NCBI GenBank assembly: GCA_045651805.1
Contig: JAZRTB010000078.1
Coordinates: 2,707-66,706 of the forward strand
Direction of reading: 5' to 3'
DNA: 64,000 nt
Source: Clostridia bacterium
GTDB lineage: Bacteria > Bacillota > Clostridia > UMGS1883
Below, one piece after another: positions 2 to 25,278 of the stretch. The number at the start of each line of letters is the position of its first letter. Position 1 is the stretch's first letter. The position numbers and the translations under genes were made by a program. The notes below the pieces were generated by a model. That model worked only from the letters and a program-made list of their open reading frames with translations. It was not told the DNA's origin and made no database searches.

Positions 2-3000
2 ACTACAACAGTTACTCTCGGAAATCTTGATGATGACTGTAGATATATGATTAACGGTAGCTATGGAGAAAAACAGTCTGACGGAACAATTCTTTTTGAA
101 AACCTTACACCAAACACAACATACGAGGTAGAGGTTATCGGTCAGGCTTCAGGCACAGCTCCCGTTTACGCATATGTCTATGCTACAACTCTTCCTGTTC
201 ACCCCGTAACAGTAAAGGTTTACCTTGATGGCGGTGTTGTGGATGGCGTGCCTTACGGTACACTCACAGACATTGAAACTTTCCTTGGAAGTGGCGCAAA
301 AGTATATCTTAAGTCAGAGAATAATACTTATTATGAACTTACAAAAACAAGCACAGGTGTGTATGAGGCAAATCTTGCAGACGGCACGTATTACATTTAT
401 AGTGCACCCAATGCTTCTTCACAGATTTGTGAACAGCAGGTTACCGTACTCGGTGGAGGAAGAGAAAGAGAACTCTTCTTCTATAGTGTAACTTATGATG
501 CAAACGGTGGTACATACGCAGGAGAAACTCTTGAATATCACCACGATGACAACAAGGTTATGGTATCATCTGTAGTGCCTGTAAAGGACGGCTATGACTT
601 TATGGGTTGGGTTGATGAAAGCGGAAAAACATATCAGTCCGGAGATGTTCTTGCAGAAGAAATTTATAATCCGTACAAGCTTACCGCAATATGGGAAAAG
701 ACAAAGTATGCAAAGGTGAACGTTACTGTAGTTGCTACACATGGTACAAGTAACGGTGCGGATCCCCATCCCGAAAGCGGAAGTATGCATATTGAGCTCG
801 CTTACAGACACAATGATTCGGAACCTTACGTTGAATACGTAGGAAAAAATAATAATTTCAGTGACTGGTATGAAAGAGGTACAAATTCAGGCAATACAAC
901 AACTGTAACATTCCCCGAACTTTATAAAGAACTTCACATAGGTTATGAATATTCAGCAACAGTTGTGCTTGATGACTACTATGTAACAGGAAGCAATGTT
1001 ACAAGCACTACCGATGCAGAGGGAAATATAACCTACGATGTAACAATCAATATTTCCTACAGTCCCGACCTCTTTAATCTTGAATATAAGGTTGTAGCAG
1101 ACAACTCAATTCCTTCAGATCTTGTTCCCAAGGCTGTGGATATGAAGGTTCTTTCTTGGGATGCAAATGTTGATGGAGAGTGGGCACCTATAAGCCGTCA
1201 CGTAGAATACTCTACAGACGTTGAACTTTCAGGCAGAAACGGCAACGGAAGCTATGCTGTTCCCGTTTACAGAAATGAAAATGAAAATTATTACTATCGT
1301 GCAGCCGCTGTAGGTTTCACACTTGCAGACGGTACAGAACTTACTGCATCAAGCACAGATGGTATTAACTTCTATTCAGATGCCAATGACAAGTATGGTA
1401 AGGGTGCGTTCTATGCAGTAATCGATGTTAACGGTGGTGCAGATGTAGACGGTACAGACCTTGACGGAGCTTATGGTATTTATGCACAGGATACTGCTAC
1501 AGGATACAAGCAGCAGGGCACAATTACAGTAACAATTTATATGAATCGTTACGATGTAATTTTTGATACACAGGGCGGTGAAGCAATCGGTGCGATTCCG
1601 GAACAGTTCAGAATTCCTGATGTAAGTATGTATGTTCCCTTTAAGGATGGCTATACATTTGCAGGATGGTACACAACTCCTGCCTGCACAGACGGTACAG
1701 AAGTTGTAGTGGGACAGGCTCTTACAAGTGATATCACACTTTATGCAAAGTGGCTTGAAAACAGAACTATTCAGGGTACAATCACAGTAGCAGGCTTTTA
1801 TATGCTTGATGGTGAAAAGGTACAGATTCCCGAGAATGACAGACTTGAAAGTGAAATTGTGCTTCTTCAGAAAATAGACCATAACGGATATTTCATCACA
1901 CTTGCAAGTGATACTGTAGATGTTTCTTACAGCGGTGACTATGGTACTGCACAGTTTGAGTTTACGGATATTGCAAACGATGACGAAGAATATCGTATAA
2001 CGATTCTTTCACACAACTATGAAGTTGCTTATCAGAACGAACTTTCTTCTTCTACTGAAGTTACAAACTATAATGCATACGATGCAAATCACTACAAGGC
2101 AGAGTTTAACGGCGATGTAAATGCAACAGTAAATGCATATCTTCACTTTGAACCGGTTGACTTTGAATTGCTTTACAGCATTGATGCATCAGCACTCGGA
2201 GAAGGATACAGACCCTCATCAGCAGAAACAGTAATTCTTTGCAACGACGGCTCAACTTCAAATCCCCAGACTTGGTCGCCTATCAGCCAGATGCTTGTAG
2301 GTGGCAACCGTGAAGGTCAGGATACTGCACTTTCAGGCGGTAAAGGTGACGATTCCTATCCCGTATGGACTGCACATGCTGATGGTACAACACTTTATGA
2401 ATATGCAATCAGCGTGGACAGCCTTGTGTTTGACGGCGAAAAAGTAGAATACACTTCCGATGCACCTTTTGCTATTTATTATAACGGCTCTGCACGTTTC
2501 AGCGATATAAACGGACAGACACAGCTTCTTACAGCTACAGTAGTTCCCAAACTTTACGAAATCGTATTCGACCTCGGTGTTGATGCGGAAGAAATTGTAA
2601 CAGGTATGAATGGATACCATTATCACGAAGATCATAATACATATGGCGATACATACTATTGGAGCTATGGCAAGCAGATTACTGCAACTCCCGTAAGAGA
2701 AGGTTATACCTTCCTCGGTTGGTATGATGCAGAAGGAAATCAGGTAACAGTAGTTACTCCCGATATGGCAGAAAATATCACTCTCTATGCAAGATGGACA
2801 CAGGACCTTTCATTCCAGGTGCTTGCAGATGCGGGTTATTATTCAGCAGAAAGAAATTCTGCAGACAAAGTTGGTGTAATTTCTCTTAATGCTCACATCA
2901 ACGATATTGAGACAGTTATAGACAGTATCGTATCATTTGGTATTTATGTATACGACAATTCTTCAGCTGAAACCAAGATAATAACTGAAAGCGTTAATAA

Positions 3001-3223
3001 GGAAACACTACTTAAGAACAATGGTTGCTTCCACACAATCATTTCAGATATTGCACAGGAGAATTTCGGAAAAGTATTTTACGGTATGCCCTTTGCAGTA
3101 ATTGATGCAGATGGCAACGATGCTACCACAGACGACAGAAAAACTGTTGTAGGCGAATTCTTCTCAACATCTGTTTCAGATGTTAACAAGTGGCTTGGCG
3201 CAGAAAATGTTTATGCAAACTAA
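2..3223 (+). CDS. Large cell-surface repeat protein, 5'-truncated by the window edge, with three Listeria-Bacteroides-type (Flg_new-like) repeats
   Basis: ORF 47..3223 stays open in the same frame back to nt 2. Three copies of the GYxFxGW...LYAxW motif are present (DGYDFMGWVDESGKTY..LTAIW; DGYTFAGWYTTP..LYAKW; EGYTFLGWYDAEGNQV..LYARW). No catalytic motif recognised. Confidence 0.6.
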   Translation, partial: TTTVTLGNLDDDCRYMINGSYGEKQSDGTILFENLTPNTTYEVEVIGQASGTAPVYAYVYATTLPVHPVTVKVYLDGGVVDGVPYGTLTDIETFLGSGAKVYLKSENNTYYELTKTSTGVYEANLADGTYYIYSAPNASSQICEQQVTVLGGGRERELFFYSVTYDANGGTYAGETLEYHHDDNKVMVSSVVPVKDGYDFMGWVDESGKTYQSGDVLAEEIYNPYKLTAIWEKTKYAKVNVTVVATHGTSNGADPHPESGSMHIELAYRHNDSEPYVEYVGKNNNFSDWYERGTNSGNTTTVTFPELYKELHIGYEYSATVVLDDYYVTGSNVTSTTDAEGNITYDVTINISYSPDLFNLEYKVVADNSIPSDLVPKAVDMKVLSWDANVDGEWAPISRHVEYSTDVELSGRNGNGSYAVPVYRNENENYYYRAAAVGFTLADGTELTASSTDGINFYSDANDKYGKGAFYAVIDVNGGADVDGTDLDGAYGIYAQDTATGYKQQGTITVTIYMNRYDVIFDTQGGEAIGAIPEQFRIPDVSMYVPFKDGYTFAGWYTTPACTDGTEVVVGQALTSDITLYAKWLENRTIQGTITVAGFYMLDGEKVQIPENDRLESEIVLLQKIDHNGYFITLASDTVDVSYSGDYGTAQFEFTDIANDDEEYRITILSHNYEVAYQNELSSSTEVTNYNAYDANHYKAEFNGDVNATVNAYLHFEPVDFELLYSIDASALGEGYRPSSAETVILCNDGSTSNPQTWSPISQMLVGGNREGQDTALSGGKGDDSYPVWTAHADGTTLYEYAISVDSLVFDGEKVEYTSDAPFAIYYNGSARFSDINGQTQLLTATVVPKLYEIVFDLGVDAEEIVTGMNGYHYHEDHNTYGDTYYWSYGKQITATPVREGYTFLGWYDAEGNQVTVVTPDMAENITLYARWTQDLSFQVLADAGYYSAERNSADKVGVISLNAHINDIETVIDSIVSFGIYVYDNSSAETKIITESVNKETLLKNNGCFHTIISDIAQENFGKVFYGMPFAVIDADGNDATTDDRKTVVGEFFSTSVSDVNKWLGAENVYAN

Positions 3224-3262
3224 TCAAATCTAATTTATTGAATTTAAAGGAGTTTATTATTA

Positions 3263-3426
3263 TGAAAAAATATGTATCACCCAGTCTTGAAATCATAGCT
3301 TTTGAAATTGTTGACGTTATTATGACATCTTCACAGGGAGATGTTACAGATACTCCCGAAACTTTAATTACTTGCGGTGAGATGGTAAATAACGTAAAAT
3401 CAGGTTCAATCAATCTTTATGACTGA
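3263..3426 (+). CDS. Small 54-aa protein or candidate precursor peptide (MKKYVSPSLEIIAFEIVDVIMTSSQGD...)
   Basis: Internal ATG of ORF 3190..3426, preceded by AAAGGAG (3246..3252) with about 10 nt spacing. It lies 40 nt after the giant surface protein stop and directly before a strong terminator. No TM segment or classical signal peptide. Confidence 0.45.
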
Positions 3427-3449
3427 TTTATAATTTAATAAGTAATAAG

Positions 3450-3489
3450 AAACTCCCCGAAAACAATGGTTTTCGGGGAGTTTTGTTTT
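3450..3489. terminator. Bidirectional rho-independent terminator between convergent genes
   Basis: 12-bp perfect stem CTCCCCGAAAAC/GTTTTCGGGGAG with loop AATG, followed by TTTTGTTTT on the + strand. An A-run on the 5' side gives a U-run on the minus strand. Confidence 0.85.
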
Positions 3490-3510
3490 AATCTGAATAA
3501 TTAAATTTTC

Positions 3511-5286
3511 TTATAAATCGCTTGCAGATGTGAAGTGACTGTCTATTTCTGATTTTTCTTCCTTGTGTTCCACCGGTGATGACATCCTGAGCTTGCTCTC
3601 GGGAGTGGGAGCAGGGGGGACAACACCGGGGGCAGGATTTTCATAAGCACGGGCATCGAACGCCGGAGTCGCAGATTCACGGTTCATATATGCTGTTTCA
3701 GTAGGATCATATGCGTTTGATTGCGGGGCAACATCCTGCTGAATGGGATTCTGCGGAGTATAGGTCTGTGTTGTTTCCCTGACAGCTGTATAGCCGTTTG
3801 CAGGAGGCACCGGTTCGCTTGCGGGTGCAACAGGTGGTGTCGCAGGAGCATATGAACGTGTATGTGTTCTTGCTATCTTCGCTTTTTTACGTTTCTTACT
3901 CTTAACTGCAAGAATAATTGAAACAACGATTATAAGAAGAAGGAGAACGCCTGCTGCAATAATAATGATAAGAATGACGGGAAATTCCTTCTTTGTAGCC
4001 GGTTCTGTTTGCGGAGCTTCCTCTGCAAGGTCAATCAGCAAGTCAATGTAAGGAGTATTCTTATTAAGATCCTTTACTCTCTCAAAACAGTTTACTGCAG
4101 CGAGACCATAGCCCTGCTGGAGCATCTGAAGTCCTGTAAGGAATGTCTTACTTGCTTCACCCTGCTCTATGTCAAGTCCGTCAGCAAGGTCTGAAACAAA
4201 CTCTGCAGACACCATGTAAGCGAAACGATAGTCGCTTGAAAGAGCATAAGTGTTAAGACCTTCTACCTGAAGATGCTTGTCAACCGAAGGACCACCGCTG
4301 TTACCACCGGAGATTCTGGCTGTAATCTCAATTGCTTTATAATCTGTACCATCAATGGGAACAAGTCTTGAAACTGTACCGGGAGAGGTTGAAACACTTA
4401 ACGTTGATGCATCACTACCGGCACTTGAGAAAATTTCCTCTGCGGCACCGGGGAAGCCTGCAGCAACAATAGAGCTGTTTGTCTCGGGATACGTTTCGGA
4501 TAATGTAAGTGCAACAAGATTTTTTGCATCTATTTTAAGAATAGCTGTATCCTCTGTAAGTCCCTCAATGTTTTCCTGAGTTCCTATTTCAATAAGCTCG
4601 GCATCGTATTTGATACCATTCTTATAAGAGGTATCACCATCAGCTGTGGGGAAGCATGCTTTTAATTTAGTTTTTTCTTCGAGCACTTCAGCATTTGCGG
4701 CAGAAGCATATAAAACAGCTTCATTCAAGGCAAGATAATCTTCTTCACTTATAGTTATGTCGTTTTCATAAATGTCGTAAAGAATTTCTTCAACGTCCTC
4801 CGCAACACTTTGGTCAAGTGAGTACATATAAATCATAAGCTTGGTCTGCTCATCAAGAGCTGCAACGTGAGCGTTTGTTGCAATGTAACCGTCATCACTT
4901 ATGATTACTGCACTACCGCTTGCTGCACCATCAACATTTTCAGTCTTATAAGAACCGAAAACGACAAATTCAAGAACGTTTTCCTTGATTCTGTCAATAA
5001 GTTCCTGTTCGCTGGATACTTCACCTCTCCAGATTTCTACCTGGGCAGCGAACTTTTCAGAGTCAACCTGAACAGGACGATAACGAATCCGTGCCTCATA
5101 CTCCAGAATAATCTGGGGAACTACTGATTTTAAGGCATGTCCGATATACTCGTCTTCATACTCGAAGTTTTCGTTGTAGCCGTATTTTTCGTAAAGCTTC
5201 TCATCTTTTTCGCAAAAACCTGCGATGGAGAAGAGGAGCAGAGCTGCAACAAACAACGCGAGAAATCTTTTGATTTTAACTTTCAT
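3511..5286 (-). CDS. Membrane-anchored trypsin-like (S1, chymotrypsin-fold) serine protease with a Pro-rich cytoplasmic tail
   Basis: SD AAGGAGG upstream. N-terminal signal peptide (MKVKIKRFLALFVAALLLFSIAG). Catalytic contexts TNAHV ... DTAILKID ... GGNSGGPS. C-terminal TM helix (ILIIIIAAGVLLLLIIVVSIILAV) followed by KSKKRKKAK and a ~130-aa Pro/Ala/Thr-rich tail. Confidence 0.8.
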   Translation of the reverse strand: MKVKIKRFLALFVAALLLFSIAGFCEKDEKLYEKYGYNENFEYEDEYIGHALKSVVPQIILEYEARIRYRPVQVDSEKFAAQVEIWRGEVSSEQELIDRIKENVLEFVVFGSYKTENVDGAASGSAVIISDDGYIATNAHVAALDEQTKLMIYMYSLDQSVAEDVEEILYDIYENDITISEEDYLALNEAVLYASAANAEVLEEKTKLKACFPTADGDTSYKNGIKYDAELIEIGTQENIEGLTEDTAILKIDAKNLVALTLSETYPETNSSIVAAGFPGAAEEIFSSAGSDASTLSVSTSPGTVSRLVPIDGTDYKAIEITARISGGNSGGPSVDKHLQVEGLNTYALSSDYRFAYMVSAEFVSDLADGLDIEQGEASKTFLTGLQMLQQGYGLAAVNCFERVKDLNKNTPYIDLLIDLAEEAPQTEPATKKEFPVILIIIIAAGVLLLLIIVVSIILAVKSKKRKKAKIARTHTRSYAPATPPVAPASEPVPPANGYTAVRETTQTYTPQNPIQQDVAPQSNAYDPTETAYMNRESATPAFDARAYENPAPGVVPPAPTPESKLRMSSPVEHKEEKSEIDSHFTSASDL

Positions 5287-5304
5287 AGTTGAATCCTCCT
5301 TGTT

Positions 5305-7569
5305 TTACGCATATTTTGTTATGAAATCATCAAGGCTCTTACATAAGTCATCGGCAGAACATTCAAGTTCATGTAAGTGCTCTTTTTTCCTTGATATGGC
5401 AGATTCACCTTTTTCCATTTCTGCAATGGAAACATGGAACTGACTTTTTATAAGCTCAATTTCATTATCTATTGAAGAAACCAATCTGTCAGCAGAGGTT
5501 TTGTAGAAATTGAGGATTTCATCTGAAATCAGATGTGAAAATTCCATTGTTGATCTACGAAGCTCAACAACTGCCTTTTCGGTAATTGTAGATTTCAGCT
5601 TTACAAGTGCAGGGGAGCCGGAAGTGCCTTTAGCTCCTGTGAAAATTGATGAAACGGCACCCGATAAGATGCTTGCACCTGAAAGAGTCTGAAGTGAATT
5701 CATAGTTTGTCCGCTTATATTCATGGTAAGCTTCCTTGTGGCGGAAGAAACATTTCCGCGGGCTTCAAAAAATGAAACTTCACTGCTGAGAGTTCTTTTT
5801 GAACTTAAAGACTCAGTATGGTCTTTTGAAAGTCTGGCAAGAGCATGCTGTGCCTCATCCAATATTACGTTGGTTTCTGATTTTGCAGAATCGAATATTG
5901 TAGAATAATTATCCTTGATTGCAGGTAAAAGTACGGATTCCTGCCAATATGTCTGATGCGCTTCCATTTTTCTTGCAAAATGTGAAGTAATTTCCTGGGA
6001 AACCGACTCAAGCTTCTGTTTGGAGGGGACAATACCCAGGTCCTGCGAGGGAATGAAAGTATCAATCCACATAGGGATATCAGCAATGGTTCCTGACAGA
6101 TTATTTGAAACCATAGATTCAAATTTGTATCCGCACTGTGATATTGAAAGAAGTGTCTTGTCGTACAAAAACTGTCTTTTTCTTTCAAGGGAATCCAGAA
6201 CGGGAAGCATTTTGTTGTAGTTCTTTTTAAGGTCATCCACTGACGTGTCAAGCATACTGCGATGACGGGGGATGATTTTACCGATTGTTTCGGATTTCAG
6301 GAACTTATTAAGCTGGCGTGCGGGAAGAACAAGCTTCATATTACCTTTCTTCTTTGTAAGGAAATCAGAAAGAGAATCTTCAAAACGGGGAAGCCCTGAA
6401 TGAATAAGCTTTTCTTTATCGTGCGTGCTTTTAGCTTCAAGAGCGTTACGGGCAGATATGAAGAAAATACCCTTTTCGCCAAAGCTTGTAAAAGGCAGTA
6501 ATTTGCTGATCGCATATTTCATAATGCGATTTTTCTCTTTATCGGGAATCATATCAAATCTGTTTACAACAAAGAACAAATCCTTGAATCCCTGTGCTTT
6601 AAGGTTATGCTCAATAAAGTTCATTTCCTCCATAGAACACAATGTTGTTGCATTCAGAACAAAAATCACCGCGTCAGATTTGCTTATAAAGTCCATTGTA
6701 ACCTTTGTTCTGGTGGAGTGCTCGTTAAGTCCGGGTGAGTCAACGATTTCTACACCATTTTTGAGTAAATCAAGAGGCCAGAAAAGTTCAACCTTCTCAT
6801 ACGGACTTTCAAGAATCATATCCTTGGGGTCTTTACCGAGAGGAATTACCACATACTGCTCTATTTTATCGTAGGGTATCTCCATAGGCGGTATTTTCCC
6901 GCCGGGATGCTTTTTTATGTGTGATAATGCTGCCGCCGGAATCTCATTCGGGAGTTCTTCGGGAAGCGGATTTTTAAAATGTATAACAGCTTTTTTTGTT
7001 TCGGCATATTTTAGTTCGTTAATGACTGCAGTACACGGGAGTGCGTGAGCAGGGAGGACCTCTTTACCGAGAAATGAGTTGATGAATGTAGATTTTCCGT
7101 TTTTAAACGTACCTACAATCTGAACCTTAAGTGTTTCGCTATGTATTCTGTTGCTCATTTCTTTTAACTGCTGTGTCAGATTTTCCATTTCAAGCTCATA
7201 CATAAGCTCCGAGGCTCTGTCAAGAAGCTTTGAAAGGTGATTCTTGTCCCTTCTGAACATTGCATACGGTGAAGTGTCGTCATCAGCGTCATCATCTATC
7301 TGAGAAAGAAGAATACTTTTTCCGCCTGTGAGCGTATCTGCAGGGGGGATTTCCTTTTTCTTCAGCCCGTTGACTTTGAGGCGGCTGACCTTCTCTTCAG
7401 GTGATGAAGTCTTGAAAGAAGAACGCAATTTCCCCATAGTTGTTCCTGAAGCCTTTGAATCTTTTGATGTATCAAAAGACCCCGGATTGTGAAAGGATGG
7501 ATCCTGAAGTGAGGACGCCGGTATCAAAGCTGTATTAATTTTATCATTTTTACCGCTGAAGTTATGCAT
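5305..7569 (-). CDS. Bacterial dynamin-like GTPase (BDLP), second of a tandem pair
   Basis: SD AGGAGG 4 nt before the ATG. G1 P-loop GTFKNGKSTFINSFLG, G3 DSPGL, G4-like VNRFD. Long helical C-terminal region. ~110-aa low-complexity N-terminal extension. Confidence 0.8.
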   Translation of the reverse strand: MHNFSGKNDKINTALIPASSLQDPSFHNPGSFDTSKDSKASGTTMGKLRSSFKTSSPEEKVSRLKVNGLKKKEIPPADTLTGGKSILLSQIDDDADDDTSPYAMFRRDKNHLSKLLDRASELMYELEMENLTQQLKEMSNRIHSETLKVQIVGTFKNGKSTFINSFLGKEVLPAHALPCTAVINELKYAETKKAVIHFKNPLPEELPNEIPAAALSHIKKHPGGKIPPMEIPYDKIEQYVVIPLGKDPKDMILESPYEKVELFWPLDLLKNGVEIVDSPGLNEHSTRTKVTMDFISKSDAVIFVLNATTLCSMEEMNFIEHNLKAQGFKDLFFVVNRFDMIPDKEKNRIMKYAISKLLPFTSFGEKGIFFISARNALEAKSTHDKEKLIHSGLPRFEDSLSDFLTKKKGNMKLVLPARQLNKFLKSETIGKIIPRHRSMLDTSVDDLKKNYNKMLPVLDSLERKRQFLYDKTLLSISQCGYKFESMVSNNLSGTIADIPMWIDTFIPSQDLGIVPSKQKLESVSQEITSHFARKMEAHQTYWQESVLLPAIKDNYSTIFDSAKSETNVILDEAQHALARLSKDHTESLSSKRTLSSEVSFFEARGNVSSATRKLTMNISGQTMNSLQTLSGASILSGAVSSIFTGAKGTSGSPALVKLKSTITEKAVVELRRSTMEFSHLISDEILNFYKTSADRLVSSIDNEIELIKSQFHVSIAEMEKGESAISRKKEHLHELECSADDLCKSLDDFITKYA

Positions 7570-7620
7570 GGCTCCTCCTGTAATATTATATGCCTGAAAA
7601 ATTAAAAATAGGTTAAATTT

Positions 7621-9642
7621 TTAGTTAAATCTATCAAGTTTTGTGCATAAAGCATAAAGCTTATCGTAAATAGGCTGAAGACTGCTGTCAGAACTGCCGG
7701 TAGCGGAAGAAAGAGCACTTTCGATAACTTTCTTCTGTGACTGTGTCCAGCCTTCCTGCTGTTTGGTAGCTTCCGACAGAATTGTATTGTACATATTCTT
7801 GATTCTGCTTTCGCTGTAAGAAACAGCGTTGTCTACTATGACGGGAACTCGCTTGTCTACTTCGTCCTTGAGAGCAAGCTTCTGACTTTCAATCTTCTTT
7901 TTGAATATTGCATCGGCTACCATGTGGCCGCCTGTTCCAAGTCCTATTGTAGCAACGAATGTAGGCCAACCTATAATTGCAAATAGCGCTGTCGTACCCA
8001 AAGAAAAGGCTGTGGAACCGATTTTATTAACCAGTTTTTCTTTTGACATATCTTTTGCAATGTCTTCCGGGGGTGTATCAAAGTTTGTATAAGCATTCTT
8101 GTCGGTTACCTCTTCGGGGGTATAGAGGACACTTGTCTTGAAGTTCTTTTCAAGAACAGAGTTAAGCCAGGAGACATCCTTTGTAACTGTTTTGGAAATC
8201 ATATTTTCCGTGGATGAAGAGAAGTTCGTCATCTCAATCTTTAGCCTGTACGGAAAATCTTCCGTCCACCATCTATGAGGATCTCCTGTGCGGGACAACT
8301 CGTACTGCATTTTTTCTGTAAGAGAATTTTTTAAATCCTCCGCCTTTGTATTAAATTGAGAATAACATTCATCAGCCTTCTGAATCATTTTGATTTTTAC
8401 TTCATCCCAGATTTCATCAGCCTTCTGAAGCATTTGAGTTTTCTGTTCTATGAGCTGCGTTTTTTCTTCGTCAGAACCTGCACTCTCAATACATTTCTGT
8501 TCGTTTATAGTGTTGAGCGCAGACTGGAAACAAGACTTAAGTTGGAGTGCGTACCAACGATCTGTAAGGTTCTTGCGGTCAGAGTCGTTCATCCATGTGT
8601 TAATCTGATTAACAATTTTGTCCATACCGATGATATCGCTATATGTGGAGTCAGGCATAGGAATGTTGTAAGGAACAAAAACAGAGATGTTATCCATTTC
8701 CCACATCTTGAGCTTCTGTCTGACAAATTCAATAACTCCGCTTCTCTGATTGATATCTACCTGGTCAAGTTTTGTGATAATAAGCATAAGGAAGGGTGTC
8801 TTTTTTGTGATAAGACGCTCTTCAATGAATACTTTTTCGCTCATACTCATTGCAGAGAGAGCGCTGATTGTAATGATTGCACAGTCGCTGTTTTTAAGCG
8901 CATCACCAATAACTCTCGTACGCTTAAGCTCAAGGTCACCTGCACCGGGAGTATCAACTATCTCAATACCATTCTTAAGTAACGGACATTTGATGTCCAC
9001 GAATGCAACCCCGTTCGGGTCGTGACCTTCATCGTCTGCAATATAATCTTCCCACGAATCAACAGATAAGGGGAGAGTACGTTTTTGTTTCTTATGTGCA
9101 TCAAAAACAGTAATTCCCTCTGCTCCTGCAGTATAGCGAATTCTTGTAAGAATCGCTGTTGTGGGCATATTTGCAACGGGAAGAATTTCCTTGCCGATAA
9201 GTTTGTTGACAAATGTACTCTTTCCGCGACTGAATTCGCCCACAACGGCAACTGTGAATTTGTGTTTATCGGCTTCCTTTGTCAAACCTTCAATTTCAGA
9301 CCTGAAAGGAGCAAATTTCTCGTCGCTGAGAACATTTGAAGCCTCCTTTGCAATGCCGAGAAGAGTCGGATCAAGCTTGATTGTAGCAGCAACAGGGGAA
9401 ACAACTTTTCGAACGTTTTCTCCGCCTTGAGGAGCAATTTTCTTTTGCTCCGTAACCTTCGGTGCAGCCTTTACAGGCGCAACCTTTTCCGGTTCTGCAT
9501 AACTGCGAGCGGGTGCAGGCTCATCTGCTGACAAGCTTGAAGCAGTCTTGAATGTGCTGGTGAAAGCAGGCTTTTTTGTTTCTGCATTGTTATCAAGCGA
9601 TGCATTTGATTTGAAAAAACTTGAAGTAAATCGGTCTGACAT
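7621..9642 (-). CDS. Bacterial dynamin-like GTPase (BDLP), first of a tandem pair
   Basis: SD AAGGAG. G1 VVGEFSRGKSTFVNKLIG, G3 DTPGAGD, G4 ITKLD. Ala/Pro/Lys-rich N-terminal ~110 aa. Hydrophobic stretch GSTAFSLGTTALFAIIGWPTFVATIGLGTGG near the C-terminus (candidate membrane paddle). Confidence 0.8.
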   Translation of the reverse strand: MSDRFTSSFFKSNASLDNNAETKKPAFTSTFKTASSLSADEPAPARSYAEPEKVAPVKAAPKVTEQKKIAPQGGENVRKVVSPVAATIKLDPTLLGIAKEASNVLSDEKFAPFRSEIEGLTKEADKHKFTVAVVGEFSRGKSTFVNKLIGKEILPVANMPTTAILTRIRYTAGAEGITVFDAHKKQKRTLPLSVDSWEDYIADDEGHDPNGVAFVDIKCPLLKNGIEIVDTPGAGDLELKRTRVIGDALKNSDCAIITISALSAMSMSEKVFIEERLITKKTPFLMLIITKLDQVDINQRSGVIEFVRQKLKMWEMDNISVFVPYNIPMPDSTYSDIIGMDKIVNQINTWMNDSDRKNLTDRWYALQLKSCFQSALNTINEQKCIESAGSDEEKTQLIEQKTQMLQKADEIWDEVKIKMIQKADECYSQFNTKAEDLKNSLTEKMQYELSRTGDPHRWWTEDFPYRLKIEMTNFSSSTENMISKTVTKDVSWLNSVLEKNFKTSVLYTPEEVTDKNAYTNFDTPPEDIAKDMSKEKLVNKIGSTAFSLGTTALFAIIGWPTFVATIGLGTGGHMVADAIFKKKIESQKLALKDEVDKRVPVIVDNAVSYSESRIKNMYNTILSEATKQQEGWTQSQKKVIESALSSATGSSDSSLQPIYDKLYALCTKLDRFN

Positions 9643-9655
9643 AGGAATGCTCCTT

Positions 9656-10186
9656 TTATACTAAATGTTTTGTATAAAAGCTGTTTGCAAGCAGCTTATA
9701 GATAGGCTTAAGCGAAGGCTCAAGCATAATGTTGAGAAGGTCAGAAAATACTCTTGCATCTTCCTTTGTGTATTCGCTGTCGGAAAGGATGGAAGAAATT
9801 CTCTTGTCATACATTGAGAAAAGCTCTGCCTTTTTAGCCTTATATTCGCTTCTTGAGTAGGTTTTGATTGCATCGTGTCTGAAAAAACCGATAGGTGCAT
9901 TAAAATCTACTTTTCTGAAAGCACTATTGTACTTAAGATCTTCAAAACCGATACATTTTTTATCGGGTAATGAAACTGTAATTATGTATCTGATAGGGAA
10001 GACAAGTGTTTTGTCAACTTCGCCTGTAACCTTGTACTTCAGGAAAGGAATCTGGAGGCAAAGTGTGGAGTTTTTCTGAACAAGCATAGGAATGCCTGCT
10101 GAATATCCCATCGGAATACCGCAGTTAAGATAAAAGTCGCTTGTTGTAAATTCTTTCATAAACTGATTTGTATCAAAATTTTTCAT
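9656..10186 (-). CDS. Hypothetical 176-aa soluble protein, translationally coupled to the upstream acidic protease-like gene
   Basis: Its ATG overlaps the upstream TAA stop (TAATG, shared A at 10186), with SD GGAGGT inside the upstream gene. No TM segment, signal peptide or motif recognised. Confidence 0.6.
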   Translation of the reverse strand: MKNFDTNQFMKEFTTSDFYLNCGIPMGYSAGIPMLVQKNSTLCLQIPFLKYKVTGEVDKTLVFPIRYIITVSLPDKKCIGFEDLKYNSAFRKVDFNAPIGFFRHDAIKTYSRSEYKAKKAELFSMYDKRISSILSDSEYTKEDARVFSDLLNIMLEPSLKPIYKLLANSFYTKHLV

Positions 10187-12582
10187 TATTCGTTACCTCC
10201 TACAAAACATTCTGTCATCTGGCAGTTACCATCTTCCCATGCATCAATGAATGCATCCATGGGAATTGCGAGGCCTGCACCATCGGGAACACCTGAATCA
10301 TTAACGATAACCATGGGGTTTTCGGGATCTGAATTGTCAATACCTATAACCTCAATAGCGTGGTCAATACCATCGGGAGCATAGGTGTAGTCGTTATCAC
10401 CTGTCCAATATTCATCTGCGTCAACAGATACAATTACCTTGTCACCGTCAGCAAGCGCTTCAGCAAGGTCATCGATTGTGTTTCCGTAGGTTGTTTCGTG
10501 AGGAACTCCGTAGTATTCAAGAAGCTTGTCCATGCAGTTAGTATATGTGCCACCTTCTTCGGTAAACCAACCGTTTTCTTCTGCAACATCACAAAGCTCT
10601 TCAATATCAACATCAGTACCTGTGTATTCTTCGATAACAAACATCTGTGCATAGATTGCACAACGGTTTGTGTTGCCCTGACTTTCCCAAAGGTCCATTG
10701 CTTCTTCCGGCTCACCGATTACCATATCGGGATCTGCCTCTGAAGGATCAAATCGTTCAAGGTCTTCGTAATATGTTGCATTTTCAGCGTTTGAGTCATA
10801 CTCGATTTCAGGAAGAACGATTTCTTCTGTATCGTCAGTATCCTCATACTCTACATCTTCAGTATATTCAGTATCTTCGATGTCTTCGGTGCTTTCGTAG
10901 TCAGAAGGTTCGTCTCCACCGATAACGTTCATATCAACACCTTCAGATTCGCGTATGCCCATATCAAAACTGTCGGTTGTGCCATCACCGTCAAGATCCT
11001 GTGCAGAAACGAAGAATTCCTTCATTTCACCTTCGGGGCCTTCAACGATGACTCTTGCTTCTGCAGAATCTGCAATGCCGTCGCCATCTGTGTCAAGTGT
11101 TTCGTAAACAACGTCTGCCTTGCCGTCCCCGTTAAGGTCCTGTGCGTGATAAGCGTAGTCAACATTTCCGTCACCGTCAAGGTCCTGCTCAACAGAGCTG
11201 TAGTCAGAAACACCGTCACCGTTTGAATCGTAGTCAGTTACAGCAGTATCAATAATACCATCACCGTCGGTATCTGCTGTGACAACTACAGAATCTGTAA
11301 CACCATCGCCATCAGTATCAAGTTCTTCATAGGTCTGGTCTACAACGCCATCACCATTTGTATCTGCTTCTTCGTAAATATAGTCAACAACGCCGTCGCC
11401 GTTAGTATCTTCTACATAGGAAGCGTAATCAATATTACCGTCACCATCAGTATCGGTAGCTTCATATGCGTAGTCTGAATTGCCGTCGCCATCAACGTCG
11501 CCTTCCTCGTAGATGTAGTCAACAGCACCGTCTCCATTAGTATCAGCTTCTTCGTAAGTGTAGTCAACAACTCCATCAGCGTTTGAGTCTTCGGCATAAA
11601 TTGCGTGGTCAATATTACCGTCGCCATCAGTATCGGTAGCTTCATATGCGAAATCTACATTGCCGTCAGCATCAAGGTCGCCTGCTTCATAAATATAGTC
11701 AACAGCACCGTCACCGTTCGTGTCTACCTCTTCATAAACGTAGTCGGTAACACCATCACTGTTGATATCTTCGCTGTATGCGGTATAATCAACAGTACCG
11801 TCACCGTTTGTATCGGCATATAAGTTTGCGTAATCGGCATTACCGTCGCCATCGATATCTGTTTCAATAAGTGTTTCGTCTACGATACCGTCGCCATTAT
11901 AATCTGTTTCGGTAACAGTAGTATCTTCTATACCGTCGCCATCTGAATCATATGAGAAAGATTCAGCTTCAGGCTCTTCGGTAACATACTCGGTAGCTTC
12001 AGGCTCTTCGGCGGTATACTCGGTTGATTCAGGTTCTTCGGTAGTATATTCTGTTTCCTCTTCTGCCAATTCCAAAGGAGCCATAAAGAGAGATTCTCCT
12101 TCTGTAGAACCGAACGAAACTTCATCATATACGCCGTCACCGTCAAGATCTGCTGCTTCAGCATAAGTAACAGTTGCACTTCCGTCGTCATTGGGGGTGA
12201 AGAAAGAAACACCGGAATAATCCATTGAACCGTCAAGATTTGTGTCAATCTGTTCGGTAAGAATATCCGCAATTCCGTCGCCGTCAAGGTCTTCTGCGTA
12301 CAACTCATAGTCAACCAAACCATCATTGTTGGTGTCAGAGGATAAAACGGTAATATCCGCAATACCATCACCATCTGTGTCTATATCAGCGTAGTATGAG
12401 TCTGCGATTCCGTCACCGTCGGTATCTACAAATTCTTCGTAAATATCGTAAGAATCGTCAGAAGCATCTGCTGCTTCGAAGTCTGATTCATCGTCTACAG
12501 ACCAAAGGTCTACATCCTCTTCGCCTGAAACCTCTTCTGTGCCGTAATCTTCATCGTCGTAATACATTTCTTCGTTTGTCAT
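10186..12582 (-). CDS. Leaderless, highly acidic protein: ~27 tandem DxDGDG calcium-loop repeats plus a C-terminal papain-fold (peptidase C39-like) domain
   Basis: The listed ORF starts at TTG 12597, but ATG 12582 (MTNEEMYY) sits 7 nt after GGAGGG, so it is the preferred start. N-terminal ~600 aa are Asp/Glu-rich with a 15-aa periodicity (DTNGDGVVDYIYEEA-like). The C-terminal ~170 aa carry QGNTNRCAIYAQM (Cys codon 10660..10662), DHAIEVIG (His 10360..10362) and VNDSG (Asp 10297..10299), with C39-like order and spacing. No signal peptide or TM segment. Confidence 0.7.
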   Translation of the reverse strand: MTNEEMYYDDEDYGTEEVSGEEDVDLWSVDDESDFEAADASDDSYDIYEEFVDTDGDGIADSYYADIDTDGDGIADITVLSSDTNNDGLVDYELYAEDLDGDGIADILTEQIDTNLDGSMDYSGVSFFTPNDDGSATVTYAEAADLDGDGVYDEVSFGSTEGESLFMAPLELAEEETEYTTEEPESTEYTAEEPEATEYVTEEPEAESFSYDSDGDGIEDTTVTETDYNGDGIVDETLIETDIDGDGNADYANLYADTNGDGTVDYTAYSEDINSDGVTDYVYEEVDTNGDGAVDYIYEAGDLDADGNVDFAYEATDTDGDGNIDHAIYAEDSNADGVVDYTYEEADTNGDGAVDYIYEEGDVDGDGNSDYAYEATDTDGDGNIDYASYVEDTNGDGVVDYIYEEADTNGDGVVDQTYEELDTDGDGVTDSVVVTADTDGDGIIDTAVTDYDSNGDGVSDYSSVEQDLDGDGNVDYAYHAQDLNGDGKADVVYETLDTDGDGIADSAEARVIVEGPEGEMKEFFVSAQDLDGDGTTDSFDMGIRESEGVDMNVIGGDEPSDYESTEDIEDTEYTEDVEYEDTDDTEEIVLPEIEYDSNAENATYYEDLERFDPSEADPDMVIGEPEEAMDLWESQGNTNRCAIYAQMFVIEEYTGTDVDIEELCDVAEENGWFTEEGGTYTNCMDKLLEYYGVPHETTYGNTIDDLAEALADGDKVIVSVDADEYWTGDNDYTYAPDGIDHAIEVIGIDNSDPENPMVIVNDSGVPDGAGLAIPMDAFIDAWEDGNCQMTECFVGGNE
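10969..12426 (-). repeat. Intragenic tandem coding repeats (15-aa D-x-[DN]-x-D-G-x-x-D units; also a 3x 10-aa TEYxxEEPEx repeat)
   Basis: Hand count of 27-28 D-x-D/N-x-D-G loops in the translated ORF. The DNA shows the matching ~45-nt periodicity (gtcaccatc / gccgtcgcc motifs). Confidence 0.8.
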
Positions 12583-12617
12583 ATATATTCCCTCCAATAT
12601 ATAATATAGGTACTTCC

Positions 12618-12646
12618 ATTATAAACCATTTGTATTTGTTTTGCAA
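12618..12646 (-). promoter_or_regulatory. Sigma-A-type promoter of the five-gene operon
   Basis: Minus strand reads TTGCAA (12646..12641), a 17-nt spacer, then TATAAT (12623..12618), about 35 nt upstream of ATG 12582. Confidence 0.6.
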
Positions 12647-12683
12647 TAGAAATGTGTAGAAAAATGTAGAAAAAACTGATGTC

Positions 12684-12829
12684 TAAAGCGGTGTTTACAT
12701 AGGGATAAATTGGTTTTAGAATGCTCTTTTCGGTTAATGCTTTACAAAAAAACGCGTAAAGCGGTGTTCACATAGAGATGAATTGGTTTTAGAATGCTCT
12801 TTTCGGTTAATACTTCACAAAAAAATCGC
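12684..12829. repeat. Two tandem copies of a 73-bp intergenic unit
   Basis: Units start at 12684 and 12757 (TAAAGCGGTGTTyACATAGrGATrAATTGGTTTTAGAATGCTCTTTTCGGTTAATrCTTyACAAAAAAA). About 90% identical by eye. Confidence 0.85.
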
Positions 12830-12860
12830 ATAATACGTCAGTATTACGCGATTTTTATTG
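12815..12860 (-). terminator. Rho-independent terminator of the downstream GT2 gene (hairpin usable on both strands)
   Basis: Stem ATCGCATAATAC/GTATTACGCGAT (one mismatch), loop GTCA, flanked by an A7 run on + (U-run on minus) and by TTTTTATT on +. Confidence 0.7.
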
Positions 12861-12914
12861 CTATGTCTTAACTCAAAAATATCTATTCTAAAACTGCTTC
12901 GCACCCAAAAACCA

Positions 12915-14381: not shown

Positions 14382-14389
14382 ATAAACAC

Positions 14390-14423
14390 AGAAACGGTAA
14401 GCAGACTTTCTGTTACCGTTTCT
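14390..14423 (-). other. Intercistronic 11-bp hairpin between the LtaS-like gene and GT2 copy A
   Basis: AGAAACGGTAA / TTACCGTTTCT perfect inverted repeat with a 12-nt loop. The following U-tract on the minus strand is weak (GTGTTTAT), so this may be an attenuator or processing site rather than a full terminator. Confidence 0.35.
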
Positions 14424-14434
14424 TGTAAGAAGCT

Positions 14435-17810: not shown

Positions 17811-18015
17811 ATGTATCCTCCGAACAAAAAAGTCTGACAACCGTTTCTACTCAAAAAATGTTAACCAAAGCAATGTTTTGATTTCCGGTTAACGCAGTCA
17901 TTATAACACAAAGATTTTTGTTTGTCAACAATTGACGAAACAACAGCCTCTAATCGGAGTGCAGCATTTTTATTGCGAAACTGCAACAGAAAAATGCATA
18001 AATGAGGCCGCGTAC

Positions 18016-21272: not shown

Positions 21273-22478
21273 CTAGTTCGTTTCTTCAAAATCGGCAAAA
21301 ACAACCTTGAAGGAAATGTTGATGTCTGCATACGGAAATTTTTCTTCCCAGTTGAAATTTTTCCATTCAGTATAATCGGGAAAGTGGGATTTTAAGGATG
21401 CTCCTGTGTCAAGAAAATCGCTTTTGTGCTTTGTCTGTGCATCGGCAAGAAGCTTTTGCGATTCGAAATCAAGCTTGTGTTCAAGAAATCTGCAGAATTT
21501 ATCTGATTTTTCTTTGCTGTTTCCGATTTTACCGGCATCCACATATTCAATGGAGACAGGTACGGTAATGTTAATTTTTGCATTACCGTTTTTTATTTCG
21601 GATTTTATCTCGGGTTTTGTTTGCTGAATAAGGCGGATTGTTACATAATCGGTGCTTTCAGGATATGAAAGGCTGTAATTGCGAGGATAATATTCATTGC
21701 AAATCATTCTCGATAAATCGGTGTGAAAGCTGCCGAGAGTACCTACCATTTTGTCATTTCGGAGTATTGCACAACCGAGAATTTCCGTTTCGTTTGAAGC
21801 CGTTCGTATAATTTCCCCTGCGCGAGCTTCATAAGAAAAGTCATCACTATCGGTATAAAGAGGAGCGGGCATTTCGGGAAGCGTGTTTTCGTTTACTCCC
21901 ACAAGTGGCACAAGGCTTCCGCTGTAAGAGTCCGAAACATTAAAAAAGAGGTAGTAAAGATACGCCTCGTTAACTTTGTTGGCGGCAACTTTCTGCATAA
22001 TGTGGTCGTAGTATTTTTCGATAAATTCCTCCTGAGACGGCTTAACGCTGTTCAGATATTTTTCGCTGCTTCCTTTTGATATGCACACATAAGTGTTAGG
22101 GCGGAAATCCCGTGATGAAGCAAATCCCGACAAAAAATCTCCGATGCCTTCCTTTGCGATTTCTTCGGAGAAAATTACGATTTTCGTATGTGTGAGATTG
22201 ATGTTCTTGCTTTTTATTGCATCAAGCTTGCGTACAGCTGAAAAGGGTGTAGGTGCTTCCACCGTAACAGTATCCGGACTGGGGGATGAAGGGGATTTCT
22301 CTTCGCCCGAACTGTTCCCCGAAGGATTTGCAAATACGAAAGTCATGCGAAGAGGGTAGCTTTTTCCTTTGTCAATTCCTATTGCAATTACAAACGCCTG
22401 ATTATCAACATCATCGCCATATCCGCAACCGCCTGAAATAAGAGCGATGCATAAAATTATTGCTATGACTTTTTTCAT
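21273..22478 (-). CDS. Spore germination receptor subunit C, Ger(x)C-family lipoprotein
   Basis: Lipobox LISGGCGY at the N-terminus. Size and position as third gene after GerA- and GerB-type genes. Its start overlaps the upstream stop (ATGA). Confidence 0.75.
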   Translation of the reverse strand: MKKVIAIILCIALISGGCGYGDDVDNQAFVIAIGIDKGKSYPLRMTFVFANPSGNSSGEEKSPSSPSPDTVTVEAPTPFSAVRKLDAIKSKNINLTHTKIVIFSEEIAKEGIGDFLSGFASSRDFRPNTYVCISKGSSEKYLNSVKPSQEEFIEKYYDHIMQKVAANKVNEAYLYYLFFNVSDSYSGSLVPLVGVNENTLPEMPAPLYTDSDDFSYEARAGEIIRTASNETEILGCAILRNDKMVGTLGSFHTDLSRMICNEYYPRNYSLSYPESTDYVTIRLIQQTKPEIKSEIKNGNAKINITVPVSIEYVDAGKIGNSKEKSDKFCRFLEHKLDFESQKLLADAQTKHKSDFLDTGASLKSHFPDYTEWKNFNWEEKFPYADINISFKVVFADFEETN

Positions 22479-23560
22479 CGGGATAACCTTCTCCTTCTTA
22501 CGATTCTTGCTATTACAAGTATAATAAAGGGCAGTGTGGGGAAAAGTAGCGTGCTCATATTTATAAGCTTTTCGTAAATGGTAAAAGCCGATGCTTCACT
22601 TTTCGGAAGCATAGAAATAAAAAATGTGATTATAGTGATTACGGGGGTAAAGGATTTTTTGACTTCTGTTGGTGAAGTGTAGGATGCAAGCCTTGCTGTG
22701 ACTGCGATTAAAACACTCATACTGCACATTACAAAGCTTGTCCACACAAATACTACAATCGGTTCAAGCCTCTGGAGAAATGCCCCTGATTTTATCATTC
22801 TTGTCATTTGGTAAAATGGCAGGAAGAAGTCTTTTGATGCAGGGTACGGTACCGTAAGACAGTATGCAAGTGTGAAAAGAGAGGAAACAACCGTAATAAT
22901 TACGAAGGTAATTATTGCTGACTTTTTTATTTCTTTGAAATTCCCAAGTCTCGGTGCAAAGAAAAAGAGAAGCACCGTTTCCGTAAAACCAAAATGCTTG
23001 GTAAAAATTCCGTCAAGGAGTTTTCCTTTATCTGCTCCGAAGATTGGCATAATGTTTTCTATACGATAATGGGGAAGAAGCGCAAGACATACGGTGAAAA
23101 GAGTTATAATAACAAAAGGAAATATTATAAGACACAGATTTCTTGTGGGCCCTGTGCCGCAGTATGCCGCTATAAATACGGGGATGAGGATAAAAAGTGC
23201 AAAAAATTCATCGGGAGCAGTTGTGGCGATAACCGTGCTTAAAGCCTCGGTAAGAAGCCTTAAAAGAACGGCGTTAAAAATCGTGAATGCGGTAATGTAG
23301 ATGTAGTTAAAAATAACACCCGTAGTTTTTCCGAGAAATGAGAATGTTATATCGCTCAATGTCATAGGAGTAAATGGCTTATAAAGAGCGAGAATGATTA
23401 CAAGGGAAATCGTTGCCAGAATGCATTTTAAAAAAACGTCAATCCATGCGGCATTGCCTACATATTTCACCATATATTCAGGAAGAATTACAAGATATTT
23501 GGAAAGAATTGCACAGGAACACAGTATTGCGATGCTTAATGCAGATTTTTTTGTATGCAT
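22475..23560 (-). CDS. Spore germination receptor subunit B (GerAB-type, APC-like permease, ~10 TM)
   Basis: Polytopic membrane protein between GerA- and GerC-type genes. Preferred start is ATG 23560 (MHTKKS) after GGAGGG; the listed ORF starts at 23575. Confidence 0.75.
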   Translation of the reverse strand: MHTKKSALSIAILCSCAILSKYLVILPEYMVKYVGNAAWIDVFLKCILATISLVIILALYKPFTPMTLSDITFSFLGKTTGVIFNYIYITAFTIFNAVLLRLLTEALSTVIATTAPDEFFALFILIPVFIAAYCGTGPTRNLCLIIFPFVIITLFTVCLALLPHYRIENIMPIFGADKGKLLDGIFTKHFGFTETVLLFFFAPRLGNFKEIKKSAIITFVIITVVSSLFTLAYCLTVPYPASKDFFLPFYQMTRMIKSGAFLQRLEPIVVFVWTSFVMCSMSVLIAVTARLASYTSPTEVKKSFTPVITIITFFISMLPKSEASAFTIYEKLINMSTLLFPTLPFIILVIARIVRRRRLSR

Positions 23561-23562
23561 TT

Positions 23563-25161: not shown

Positions 25162-25278
25162 AATGCCCCTCACAAAACTGATTTTGGTTATTTTTTCACG
25201 GAAGAAAATATTTATTCATTTTTCTTGAAAATGGTATTTATCTGTGATAGAATCAAATTCTGGGAAGGATGATTTTTT

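Follow-up and report, generated by a model that had tools for sequence, protein, structure and literature searches.

The described systems that come closest to the locus presented here are pairs of bacterial dynamin-like proteins (BDLPs), namely Nostoc BDLP, Campylobacter jejuni DLP1/DLP2, Bacillus subtilis DynA (a fused pair) and Mycobacterium tuberculosis IniA/IniC. To our knowledge, BDLP function and the way in which these GTPases are switched are largely open questions, studies cover few members, and a dedicated regulator is not known. The locus lies in a 64,000-nt stretch (hereafter, the window) of contig JAZRTB010000078.1 from a Clostridia bacterium and consists of five minus-strand genes, G1 to G5, which encode a protein with calcium loops and a predicted papain-fold peptidase domain, a small basic protein, two dynamin-like proteins (DLP-A and DLP-B) and a trypsin-like serine protease. 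As in the known pairs, the paralogous dynamin-like proteins (DLPs) are adjacent and have intact GTPase motifs, with helical stalks and a hydrophobic paddle as possible further likenesses. Unlike those pairs, which lack both a conserved peptidase and a G2-type adaptor, the first four genes of the locus, G1-G2-DLP-A-DLP-B, form a conserved and mobile unit that most often comprises six genes; the family usually has three or four DLP paralogs together with a 173-aa membrane protein, and its DLPs show low sequence identity to any characterised DLP. The cluster in the window is a minority, trimmed form of this cassette. What is new is the conserved combination of peptidase, putative adaptor and DLPs, the DLPs themselves being of the known BDLP/mitofusin class. 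The conserved linkage and a natural fusion of G2 to DLP-A are solid; a function is what we infer.

The second group of related systems comprises Eleos (LeoA/LeoBC) and the LeoABC proteins of enterotoxigenic Escherichia coli (ETEC). Millman et al. (2022) described a two-gene dynamin defence system that acts against jumbo phages and in which GTPase mutants lose defence. DynA delays phage lysis, and LeoA has been tied to vesicle-associated toxin release (PMC4159319); the statements of the initial annotation on Millman et al., on DynA and on LeoABC agree with these sources. The cassette resembles these systems in being a multi-DLP operon with a patchy, cross-phylum distribution and weak PADLOC matches, but Eleos consists of two genes and has neither protease nor adaptor, whereas the cassette encodes both. 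The DLPs score 25.8 bits against the NCBIfam LeoA/HP0731 model DLP_LeoA_gen (cut-off 325), their PADLOC matches to LeoA (55 bits) and LeoBC (40 bits) are partial, and G1 and G2 match no PADLOC model. Among the 140 nearest flanking open reading frames (ORFs) of 33 cassette loci, three matched PADLOC at E<=1e-10, all to generic kinase-type models (PD-T4-6, mad6, C3a189) plus MkoA. The cassette is thus not Eleos and shows no defence-island signal, and the proposal of the initial annotation that it might be an expanded Eleos-like system is not supported. Full-text literature searches yielded no description of a peptidase-adaptor-DLP module and nothing relevant beyond Eleos and LeoABC, in keeping with the earlier statement that no protease-linked BDLP module had been described; a 2020 eLife paper on conflict systems does not mention dynamins.

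Linkage of the first four genes was established in two scans. The first was anchored on G2, covered one genome per GTDB species and, after ORF and phmmer analysis, rendered 33 loci in Oscillospiraceae, Acutalibacteraceae, Lachnospiraceae, other Clostridia and Bacteroidales, the last including the cultured Bacteroides oleiciplenus YIT 12058 as well as Prevotella, Muribaculaceae and Paludibacteraceae. At every one of the 33 loci the gene immediately upstream of G2 is a G1 homolog; past G2, a DLP-A ortholog stands next at 30 of the 31 loci with sequence there, and a DLP-B ortholog after it at 28, so that the full four-gene order is present in 28 of 33 species genomes. In the exception past G2 (L032), the G1-G2 pair is flanked by an Hsp70-like gene in front and a HerA/DUF87-like ATPase gene behind. 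A third DLP gene (DLP-C) is next in 24 loci, usually followed by a gene for a protein of about 173 residues with two hydrophobic segments (P173). The cassette proteins of Clostridia and Bacteroidales are about 45-55% identical, and the flanking genes vary from locus to locus, with 176 Pfam families represented among them.

The second scan was anchored on DLP-B in metagenomes. A search with the single G4 sequence had used patterns that were too specific and confirmed nothing; repeated with an ortholog alignment (A4), it returned 80 loci, 59 of which had enough upstream sequence to be judged. The order G1-G2-DLP-A-DLP-B was found in 44 of the 59, G1-DLP-A-DLP-B without G2 (often with DLP-C upstream) in nine, and G1 downstream in one; three loci had DLP-A and DLP-B only and two had only DLP-B, P173 and DLP-C. 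The contigs bearing the nine G2-less loci have names unlike those labelled human gut, a distinction that comes from the names and not from sample sources. DLP-C and/or P173 is present in 30 of 31 canonical metagenome loci with enough downstream sequence. The initial annotation had grouped G1, G2 and the two DLPs and had regarded a DLP pair without partners as evidence of fortuitous adjacency; what we found is that the linkage is kept across phyla in both scans and that a peptidase is encoded at 54 of the 59 judgeable DLP-B loci. In the window, the cassette profile hidden Markov models (HMMs) recovered all four proteins (E 3.5e-96 for G1, 1.3e-79 for G2, 3e-241 for DLP-A and 2e-257 for DLP-B), and DLP-C and P173 gave no profile match anywhere in its 64 kb.

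Table 1. Genes, protein regions and expression signals of the cluster, in window positions
Feature	Position	Strand	Description
G1	10186..12582	-	ATG start; 798 aa; Ca-loop array and C-terminal predicted papain-fold peptidase
G1 Ca-loop array	10972..12426	-	aa 53-537; 27 Dx[DN]xDGxxD loops
G1 peptidase domain	10198..10785	-	aa ~600-795; candidate Gln635, Cys641, His741, Asn761/Asp762
G2	9656..10186	-	176 aa, basic; start overlaps G1 stop
G3 (DLP-A)	7621..9642	-	dynamin-like GTPase, 673 aa
G4 (DLP-B)	5305..7569	-	dynamin-like GTPase, 754 aa
G5	3511..5286	-	S1 (Trypsin_2) serine protease; signal peptide and transmembrane anchor
Candidate sigma-70-type promoter, TTGCAA-17-TATAAT	12618..12646	-	10/12 matches; 36 nt 5' of the G1 start
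Tandem repeat, 2 copies of a 69-nt unit	12684..12825		93% identical, 73-nt spacing; just 5' of the cluster promoter
Bidirectional intrinsic terminator	3449..3484		15-16 bp GC-rich stem and T-run; serves the cluster and the convergent gene 47..3223

Parts of the cassette also occur on plasmids and with other partners. Plasmid pANA01 of Anabaena sp. 90 (2897-14247) carries, in this order, genes for Hsp70, four hypothetical proteins, a C39 peptidase with two calcium loops, a homolog of G2 (27% identity, E 2e-17) and a pair of dynamins, with a CHAT-domain protein encoded upstream. The G1 peptidase domain has homologs (35-38% identity) on 27 Rhodococcus/Prescottella plasmids, each at a distance of 3-6 kb from a dynamin-GTPase-Hsp70 cluster and separated from it by a gene for a sigma-70 factor; examples are Prescottella equi pVAPN1571 (8671-17707) and a Rhodococcus qingshengii plasmid (8923-18579). 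On other contigs the peptidase, with or without G2, is joined to DLPs, Hsp70-like proteins, a HerA-like ATPase and a serpin. In L041 (1536-14241) G1-G2 is accompanied by genes for a HerA/DUF87-like ATPase, an Hsp70-like protein, two DLPs, a zinc-ribbon protein and a serpin, and in L032 (6436-13189) the pair stands beside its ATPase and Hsp70-like genes alone. The G1-G2 pair thus appears to be a portable module serving different nucleoside triphosphatases. Judged by these comparisons, the cassette is horizontally spread and reaches two phyla beyond those of the Clostridia and Bacteroidales. NCBI labels its parts 'C39 family peptidase', 'hypothetical protein' and 'dynamin family protein'.

The dynamin assignment made for G3 and G4 on first inspection is confirmed by Dynamin_N matches well above the Pfam cut-off of 27 bits (G3, 82.7 bits, E 4e-23; G4, 89.4 bits, E 3e-25) and by complete sets of G-motifs: P-loop GEFSRGKS, DTPG and TKLD in G3, and P-loop GTFKNGKS, DSPG and NRFD in G4. 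The nearest solved structures are Nostoc BDLP (2j68; E 4e-33 with G4), C. jejuni DLP1/DLP2 (5owv) and mitofusins, and LeoA does not appear among the PDB sequence matches (E <= 0.01) for either protein. The Pfam model Dynamin-like_hel_bact is matched by G4 (29.6 bits, cut-off 28.3) and not by G3, and the NCBIfam DynA model is matched partially by both (61 bits for G3 and 46 for G4, cut-off 1600). In G3 the N-terminal ~100 residues are disordered and a hydrophobic 19-mer (aa 551-570) is paddle-like; no such segment was detected in G4 at the threshold used, and G4 carries a lineage-specific N-terminal extension of about 100 residues. Both proteins are predicted to be active GTPases of the fusogenic BDLP/mitofusin class. 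Together they would form a heterotypic pair acting on the cytoplasmic membrane. Membrane action of the cassette is suggested because its DLPs are nearest to the BDLP, Cj-DLP1/2 and mitofusin class, because G3 has the paddle-like segment and because the product of the gene that usually comes sixth has two hydrophobic segments.

G2 (isoelectric point 9.1) has no match in Pfam, NCBIfam or PADLOC. Its AlphaFold (AF2) model is confident (predicted local distance difference test, pLDDT, 94) and consists of a five-stranded sheet followed by four helices, with no meaningful fold match among PDB structures (best E 0.076, TM-score <= 0.25). The family is rare: a profile search of 1.84 billion representative proteins returned 216 relatives, and it forms 74 clusters at 90% identity. 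One of the relatives, P0331 (760 aa), is a natural fusion in which residues 33-181 align to G2 (29% identity, E 3e-15) and the stretch 252-723 matches DLP-A of the window from end to end (E 1e-22); the protein scores above the Dynamin_N cut-off. A second long relative, P0333, has a similar layout with a sub-threshold Dynamin_N match and is probably another G2-DLP-A-like fusion. Because of the fusion, G2 can be viewed as a detachable N-terminal module of DLP-A, and we predict that it is a DLP-A adaptor, which either docks on DLP-A or represents its detached N-terminal domain; the translational coupling of G2 to G1 (TAATG) was counted as further support for this role. In the G2-less architecture the DLP-A proteins are longer, with a conserved N-terminal extension of about 150 residues. 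An HMM search for a G2 domain hidden in these proteins gave nothing significant, and hhalign placed the extension collinear with the sheet half of G2 at a weak level (E 0.0022, 12.8% probability), which can be taken as a lead only. Gene order, translational coupling and natural fusion together are what tie a protease and a new-fold adaptor candidate to DLPs.

Operons in which a protease gene is followed by a co-translated gene for a small protein are known from the staphopain-staphostatin systems. That likeness does not extend to the small protein: the PDB fold search gave G2 no staphostatin-like or other PDB-like fold, and its partner appears to be a DLP, so a staphostatin-like inhibitor is without structural support. 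No sequence relative of G2 was found in the phage collections INPHARED and IMG/VR. The sole structural relative that came to light is a 158-aa uncharacterised protein of a gut siphovirus (BFVD A0A8S5LSF7, Siphoviridae sp. ctMAv2; E 3.6e-5, TM-score 0.67/0.74, 10% identity), a likeness that could reflect mimicry or chance.

G1 is strongly acidic (isoelectric point 4.05; Asp+Glu 31%, Lys+Arg 1%) and contains neither a signal peptide nor a transmembrane or other hydrophobic segment. Its 27 loops follow a strict 15-residue period and agree with the DxDxDG calcium-loop consensus; at the level of single loops they resemble the EF-hand loops of calmodulin-type chains weakly (E 3e-4 to 0.06), and a TSP3_bac match (E 0.029) stays below the Pfam cut-off. 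The array is broken up by an acidic EEPExTEYT linker, itself a 30-nt (10-aa, EEPExTEYT-like) tandem repeat at 11968-12055. The underlying DNA repeats every 45 nt and also in a higher-order unit of 180 nt (78% identity), a pattern consistent with expansion by tandem duplication.

The C-terminal domain of G1 matches Pfam Peptidase_C39_2 (PF13529) over residues 634-763 with 28.7 bits (cut-off 24), and its candidate catalytic residues (Table 1) are invariant across 38 homologs. A sequence search against the PDB gave no match for this domain, and its fold is for this reason taken from the predicted structure (AF2, pLDDT 89), which Foldseek places with cathepsins S, L and K, the Bacillus anthracis C39-like protein 3erv and staphopains (E ~1e-6 to 4e-7, TM-score ~0.6). 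Pfam match, structure prediction and Foldseek agree in this way with the papain fold assumed in the initial annotation, and the prediction that G1 is a papain-fold cysteine peptidase, probably an active one, is well supported. In its C39_2 match and structural similarity it compares with the C39-like peptidases and staphopain. It differs from classical C39 exporters, in which the peptidase is fused N-terminally to an ABC exporter: G1 is stand-alone and soluble, and the cluster contains no ABC transporter and no evident double-glycine peptide substrate.

The absence of a signal peptide and transmembrane segment predicts a cytoplasmic location for G1, in line with the cytoplasmic topology of G1-G4 as a whole, and about 40 G1 homologs from Gram-positive and Gram-negative hosts likewise have neither signal peptide nor lipobox. 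DxDxDG loops occur in nearly all G1 homologs of the canonical clade, with medians of 5-9. Many of the homologs (L009-L034, L095-L126), with loops or without, start with a short acidic-aromatic motif (MFDF..LNFD, MFDLF, MFELFH), which may be a docking motif.

The explanation that we tentatively prefer, although it falls somewhat short of an even chance, is that a DLP machine for membrane surveillance or repair uses the peptidase as its gate or sensor and that, in this clade, the signal would be Ca2+ influx through a damaged membrane. We counted as support the linkage of the C39 peptidase to DLPs, the intact motifs of the peptidase and GTPases, the G2-DLP-A fusion, the closeness of the DLPs to the fusogenic class, the calcium-type loops of G1 and the cytoplasmic topology. 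The sub-micromolar cytoplasmic Ca2+ of a resting cell would leave G1 inactive. Once a pore-forming peptide, a phage or lysis had breached the membrane, Ca2+ would enter, the loop array would bind it, and the peptidase would be activated, or recruited through G2, and would process a DLP or G2. This processing might then switch on GTP-driven tethering, fusion or sealing of membranes by DLP-A and DLP-B.

The analogies behind this scheme are the low cytoplasmic Ca2+ of bacteria, calpain-dependent membrane repair and the proteolytic processing of OPA1/Mgm1. With calpain the cassette would share the combination of a papain-fold cysteine protease with Ca2+-binding loops, and with OPA1/Mgm1 a protease genetically tied to fusogenic dynamin-like GTPases; the resemblance would be one of logic and not of ancestry. 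G1 has no homology to the C2 catalytic domain or penta-EF-hand of calpain, its loops being a 15-residue repeat array, and no calpain or EF-hand Pfam domain was found in it, the similarity to EF-hands being confined to the loops. A fuller version of the idea, in which the cassette would be a prokaryotic counterpart of Ca2+/calpain wound repair, with a G2-docked protease that cleaves and thereby activates a hetero-oligomeric dynamin machine resealing or fusing the membrane, we regard as unlikely taken as a whole. If it were true, protease gating would be a general and previously unrecognised control of bacterial dynamins, spread horizontally across at least four phyla.

Several observations count against a Ca2+-gated surveillance machine. 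The five of 59 DLP-B loci that lack a peptidase indicate that the DLPs can occur alone, and the G2-DLP-A fusion ties G2 to a DLP while remaining silent on what the peptidase cleaves. In the G2-less architecture the N-termini of the G1 homologs, though acidic, contain no DxDxDG loop in nine of ten cases (the tenth, L103, has four), and several short homologs (224 aa) are devoid of any array; Ca2+ sensing is therefore not a universal trigger, and the array is best seen as a clade-specific elaboration of a generally acidic N-terminus. Arrays of Ca2+ loops are, moreover, typical of extracellular bacterial proteins and suit an export role at least equally well.

The strongest rival, though in our estimate rather unlikely, is a defence against phages or other invaders, in which the DLPs would sense or counter infection at the membrane in the manner of Eleos or DynA, G1 would be the effector that arrests or kills the cell, and G2 would couple the two; it overlaps the surveillance machine if phage damage is the trigger. 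The patchy spread across phyla with the Clostridia-Bacteroidales identities given above, the flanks that differ at each locus, the copies on plasmids and, in L044, between transposases, and the modular exchange of accessory genes, with a HerA/DUF87-like ATPase, Hsp70-like proteins, a serpin and a CHAT-domain protein nearby, all fit such a role, as does the precedent of a proven two-gene dynamin system that loses protection on GTPase mutation. Patchy spread, plasmid copies and swappable partners make a role in conflict possible. Against it stand the partial and weak LeoA/LeoBC matches, the lack of any PADLOC model for G1 and G2, the LeoA subfamily score far below its cut-off and the rarity and generic nature of PADLOC matches in the flanks. 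The surroundings of the window cluster, too, are housekeeping and cell-envelope genes on what looks like an ordinary spore-former chromosome (GT2-sulfatase-GT2 genes, a GerA operon at 21273..25173, genes for lysyl- and leucyl-tRNA synthetases, LysRS and LeuRS, and a histidine kinase).

An export device, in which the DLPs vesiculate the membrane and release a leaderless G1 that folds on binding Ca2+, much as LeoABC is proposed to assist toxin release, and in which the S1 protease shares the extracellular targets of G1, appears quite improbable. Repeated DxDxDG loops normally work at extracellular Ca2+, papain-fold relatives such as the staphopains are secreted, the gene neighbours include cell-envelope functions and the G5 catalytic domain is predicted to be extracytoplasmic; the vesicle-associated toxin release to which LeoA has been tied (PMC4159319) would be a precedent. 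However, none of the ~40 G1 homologs has a signal peptide or lipobox, one and the same cassette would need to export through the single membrane of Clostridia and through both membranes of Bacteroidales, some lineages have G2 fused to a cytoplasmic DLP, G1 homologs free of Ca loops exist, and G5 is no conserved partner. A housekeeping role in membrane remodelling during division or sporulation, like that of Streptomyces DynA/DynB and with G1 as a maturation protease, is highly improbable, for although the window comes from a spore-former (GerA operon) and the module of L049 lies a few kb from smc and ftsY, the cassette is also found in non-sporulating Bacteroidales and on a cyanobacterial plasmid and, with its few G2 representatives, is rare and patchy, unlike a core division function.

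The conserved linkage and the fusion offer BDLP biology a testable regulator, with defined catalytic and P-loop residues, a possible Ca2+ dependence of the protease and a G2-DLP-A interface to address. Because Clostridia and Bacteroidales of the human gut and the rumen commonly carry the cassette, which also has relatives on virulence-type plasmids of Prescottella equi, any part that it plays in envelope stress, phage resistance or vesicle biology could be relevant to gut ecology.

The fifth gene was included in the unit by the initial annotation, and that part did not hold. Its description of G5 as a membrane-anchored trypsin-like protease is borne out by a Trypsin_2 match above the Pfam cut-off (His140 in TNAHV, aa 137-141; Ser330 in GNSGG, aa 328-332), a signal peptide and a transmembrane segment at ~aa 437-462, followed by KSKKRKKAK and a Pro-rich tail of 130 residues. 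Because a signal peptide is combined with a single transmembrane segment and a basic stretch after it, the catalytic domain is predicted to lie outside the membrane and the tail in the cytoplasm. G5 shares the trypsin-like domain with HtrA/DegP proteases (S1C) but has no PDZ domain in Pfam searches and scores 30-40 bits against HtrA-type NCBIfam models, far below their equivalog cut-offs of 416-470. Its homologs form a widespread Clostridial family, members of which, at 38-49% identity, sit after a PfkB-like gene downstream of ftsH, after an RNase T gene or after smc-ftsY. The window and L010 are the only loci at which a G5-type protease was found directly after DLP-B; beside the cassette of the closer relatives L049, L008, L009 and L026 it is missing, and it was adjacent at 0 of the 80 DLP-B-anchored metagenome loci. 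In L049, where G2 is 59% identical to that of the window, four cassette genes are followed by convergent transporter genes.

G5 is probably co-transcribed with the cassette in the window, and the balance of evidence makes it, in our judgement, probably a habitual 3'-end neighbour of unrelated operons and no subunit, although its adjacency in two genomes with different flanks and ~50% divergence speaks against this. The alternative, a rather doubtful one, is that this lineage has G5 as a genuine fifth subunit, with an anchor and a Pro-rich tail that would replace DLP-C and the 173-aa membrane protein and link DLP action to extracytoplasmic proteolysis. It would account for a G5 start 18 nt after G4 with its own Shine-Dalgarno sequence and no intervening terminator, for the identical order in L010 despite different flanks, for the placement of the window and L010 proteases in one sub-clade of ten among 68, and for the lack of DLP-C and P173 at both loci. 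It is harder to reconcile with P0131, a member of that same sub-clade that sits after argG-argH, with the unrelated genes preceding other homologs, with the G5-less loci of the closest long-contig G2 relatives (L049 and L008) and with the 80 DLP-B-anchored loci. A promoter-like site (10/12) within G4, at 5492..5464, likewise weighs against it and could be a separate promoter for G5.

The operon anatomy is otherwise as first described, with five minus-strand ORFs separated by -1, 13, 51 and 18 nt, each with its own Shine-Dalgarno sequence. Read directly from the sequence, the G1/G2 junction is a 1-nt overlap (TAATG) with AGGAGG 5' of it, and the gaps before G3 (13 nt), G4 (51 nt) and G5 (18 nt) hold AAGGAG, AGGAGG and AGGAGG, respectively. 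A TTG five codons 5' of the ATG of G1 overlaps the Shine-Dalgarno sequence. The promoter-like site upstream and the strong terminator downstream, both claimed at the outset, are present, and no comparable terminator was found inside the five-gene cluster. Promoter-like matches in the AT-rich region numbered 25, against 22.3 expected from shuffled sequences; TTGCAA-17-TATAAT is accordingly a plausible promoter candidate by position alone, its score being no evidence in itself. Between it and the terminator hairpin of the upstream GT2 (family 2 glycosyltransferase) gene (12821-12856) lies the 69-nt repeat pair, a unit that has no other copy in the window (chance expectation, 0 matches) and may be a duplicated operator or regulatory site. 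An Rfam scan of the cluster gave one sub-threshold match, to the Streptococcus sRNA SpF66 at 3349-3492 (+) (24.4 bits, cut-off 42, E 0.015), which overlaps the terminator and is most likely due to chance. GC composition gives no hint of foreign origin, and the peak of 0.455 over G1 is attributable to Asp and Gly codons.

Among the genes flanking the 33 loci, the commonest family is that of LytTR DNA-binding proteins, with four of the 140 ORFs (for instance L001, 8037-8792, and also L002), which may act as local regulators in some lineages; none stands beside the cassette of the window. Upstream of the latter is a GT2-sulfatase-GT2 cluster (12915-17840, minus strand), in which the sulfatase is similar to lipoteichoic acid (LTA) synthases. 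In L008 (6354-8444) and L049 (6366-8294), too, the first gene upstream of the cassette belongs to the sulfatase family, and this may reflect residual synteny or a link to the envelope. Divergent from the GT2-sulfatase-GT2 genes, window positions 18069-21104 (+) encode an unusual protein of 1011 residues that combines a Peptidase_S8 subtilase domain with a von Willebrand factor A (vWA) domain and a C-terminal zinc ribbon.

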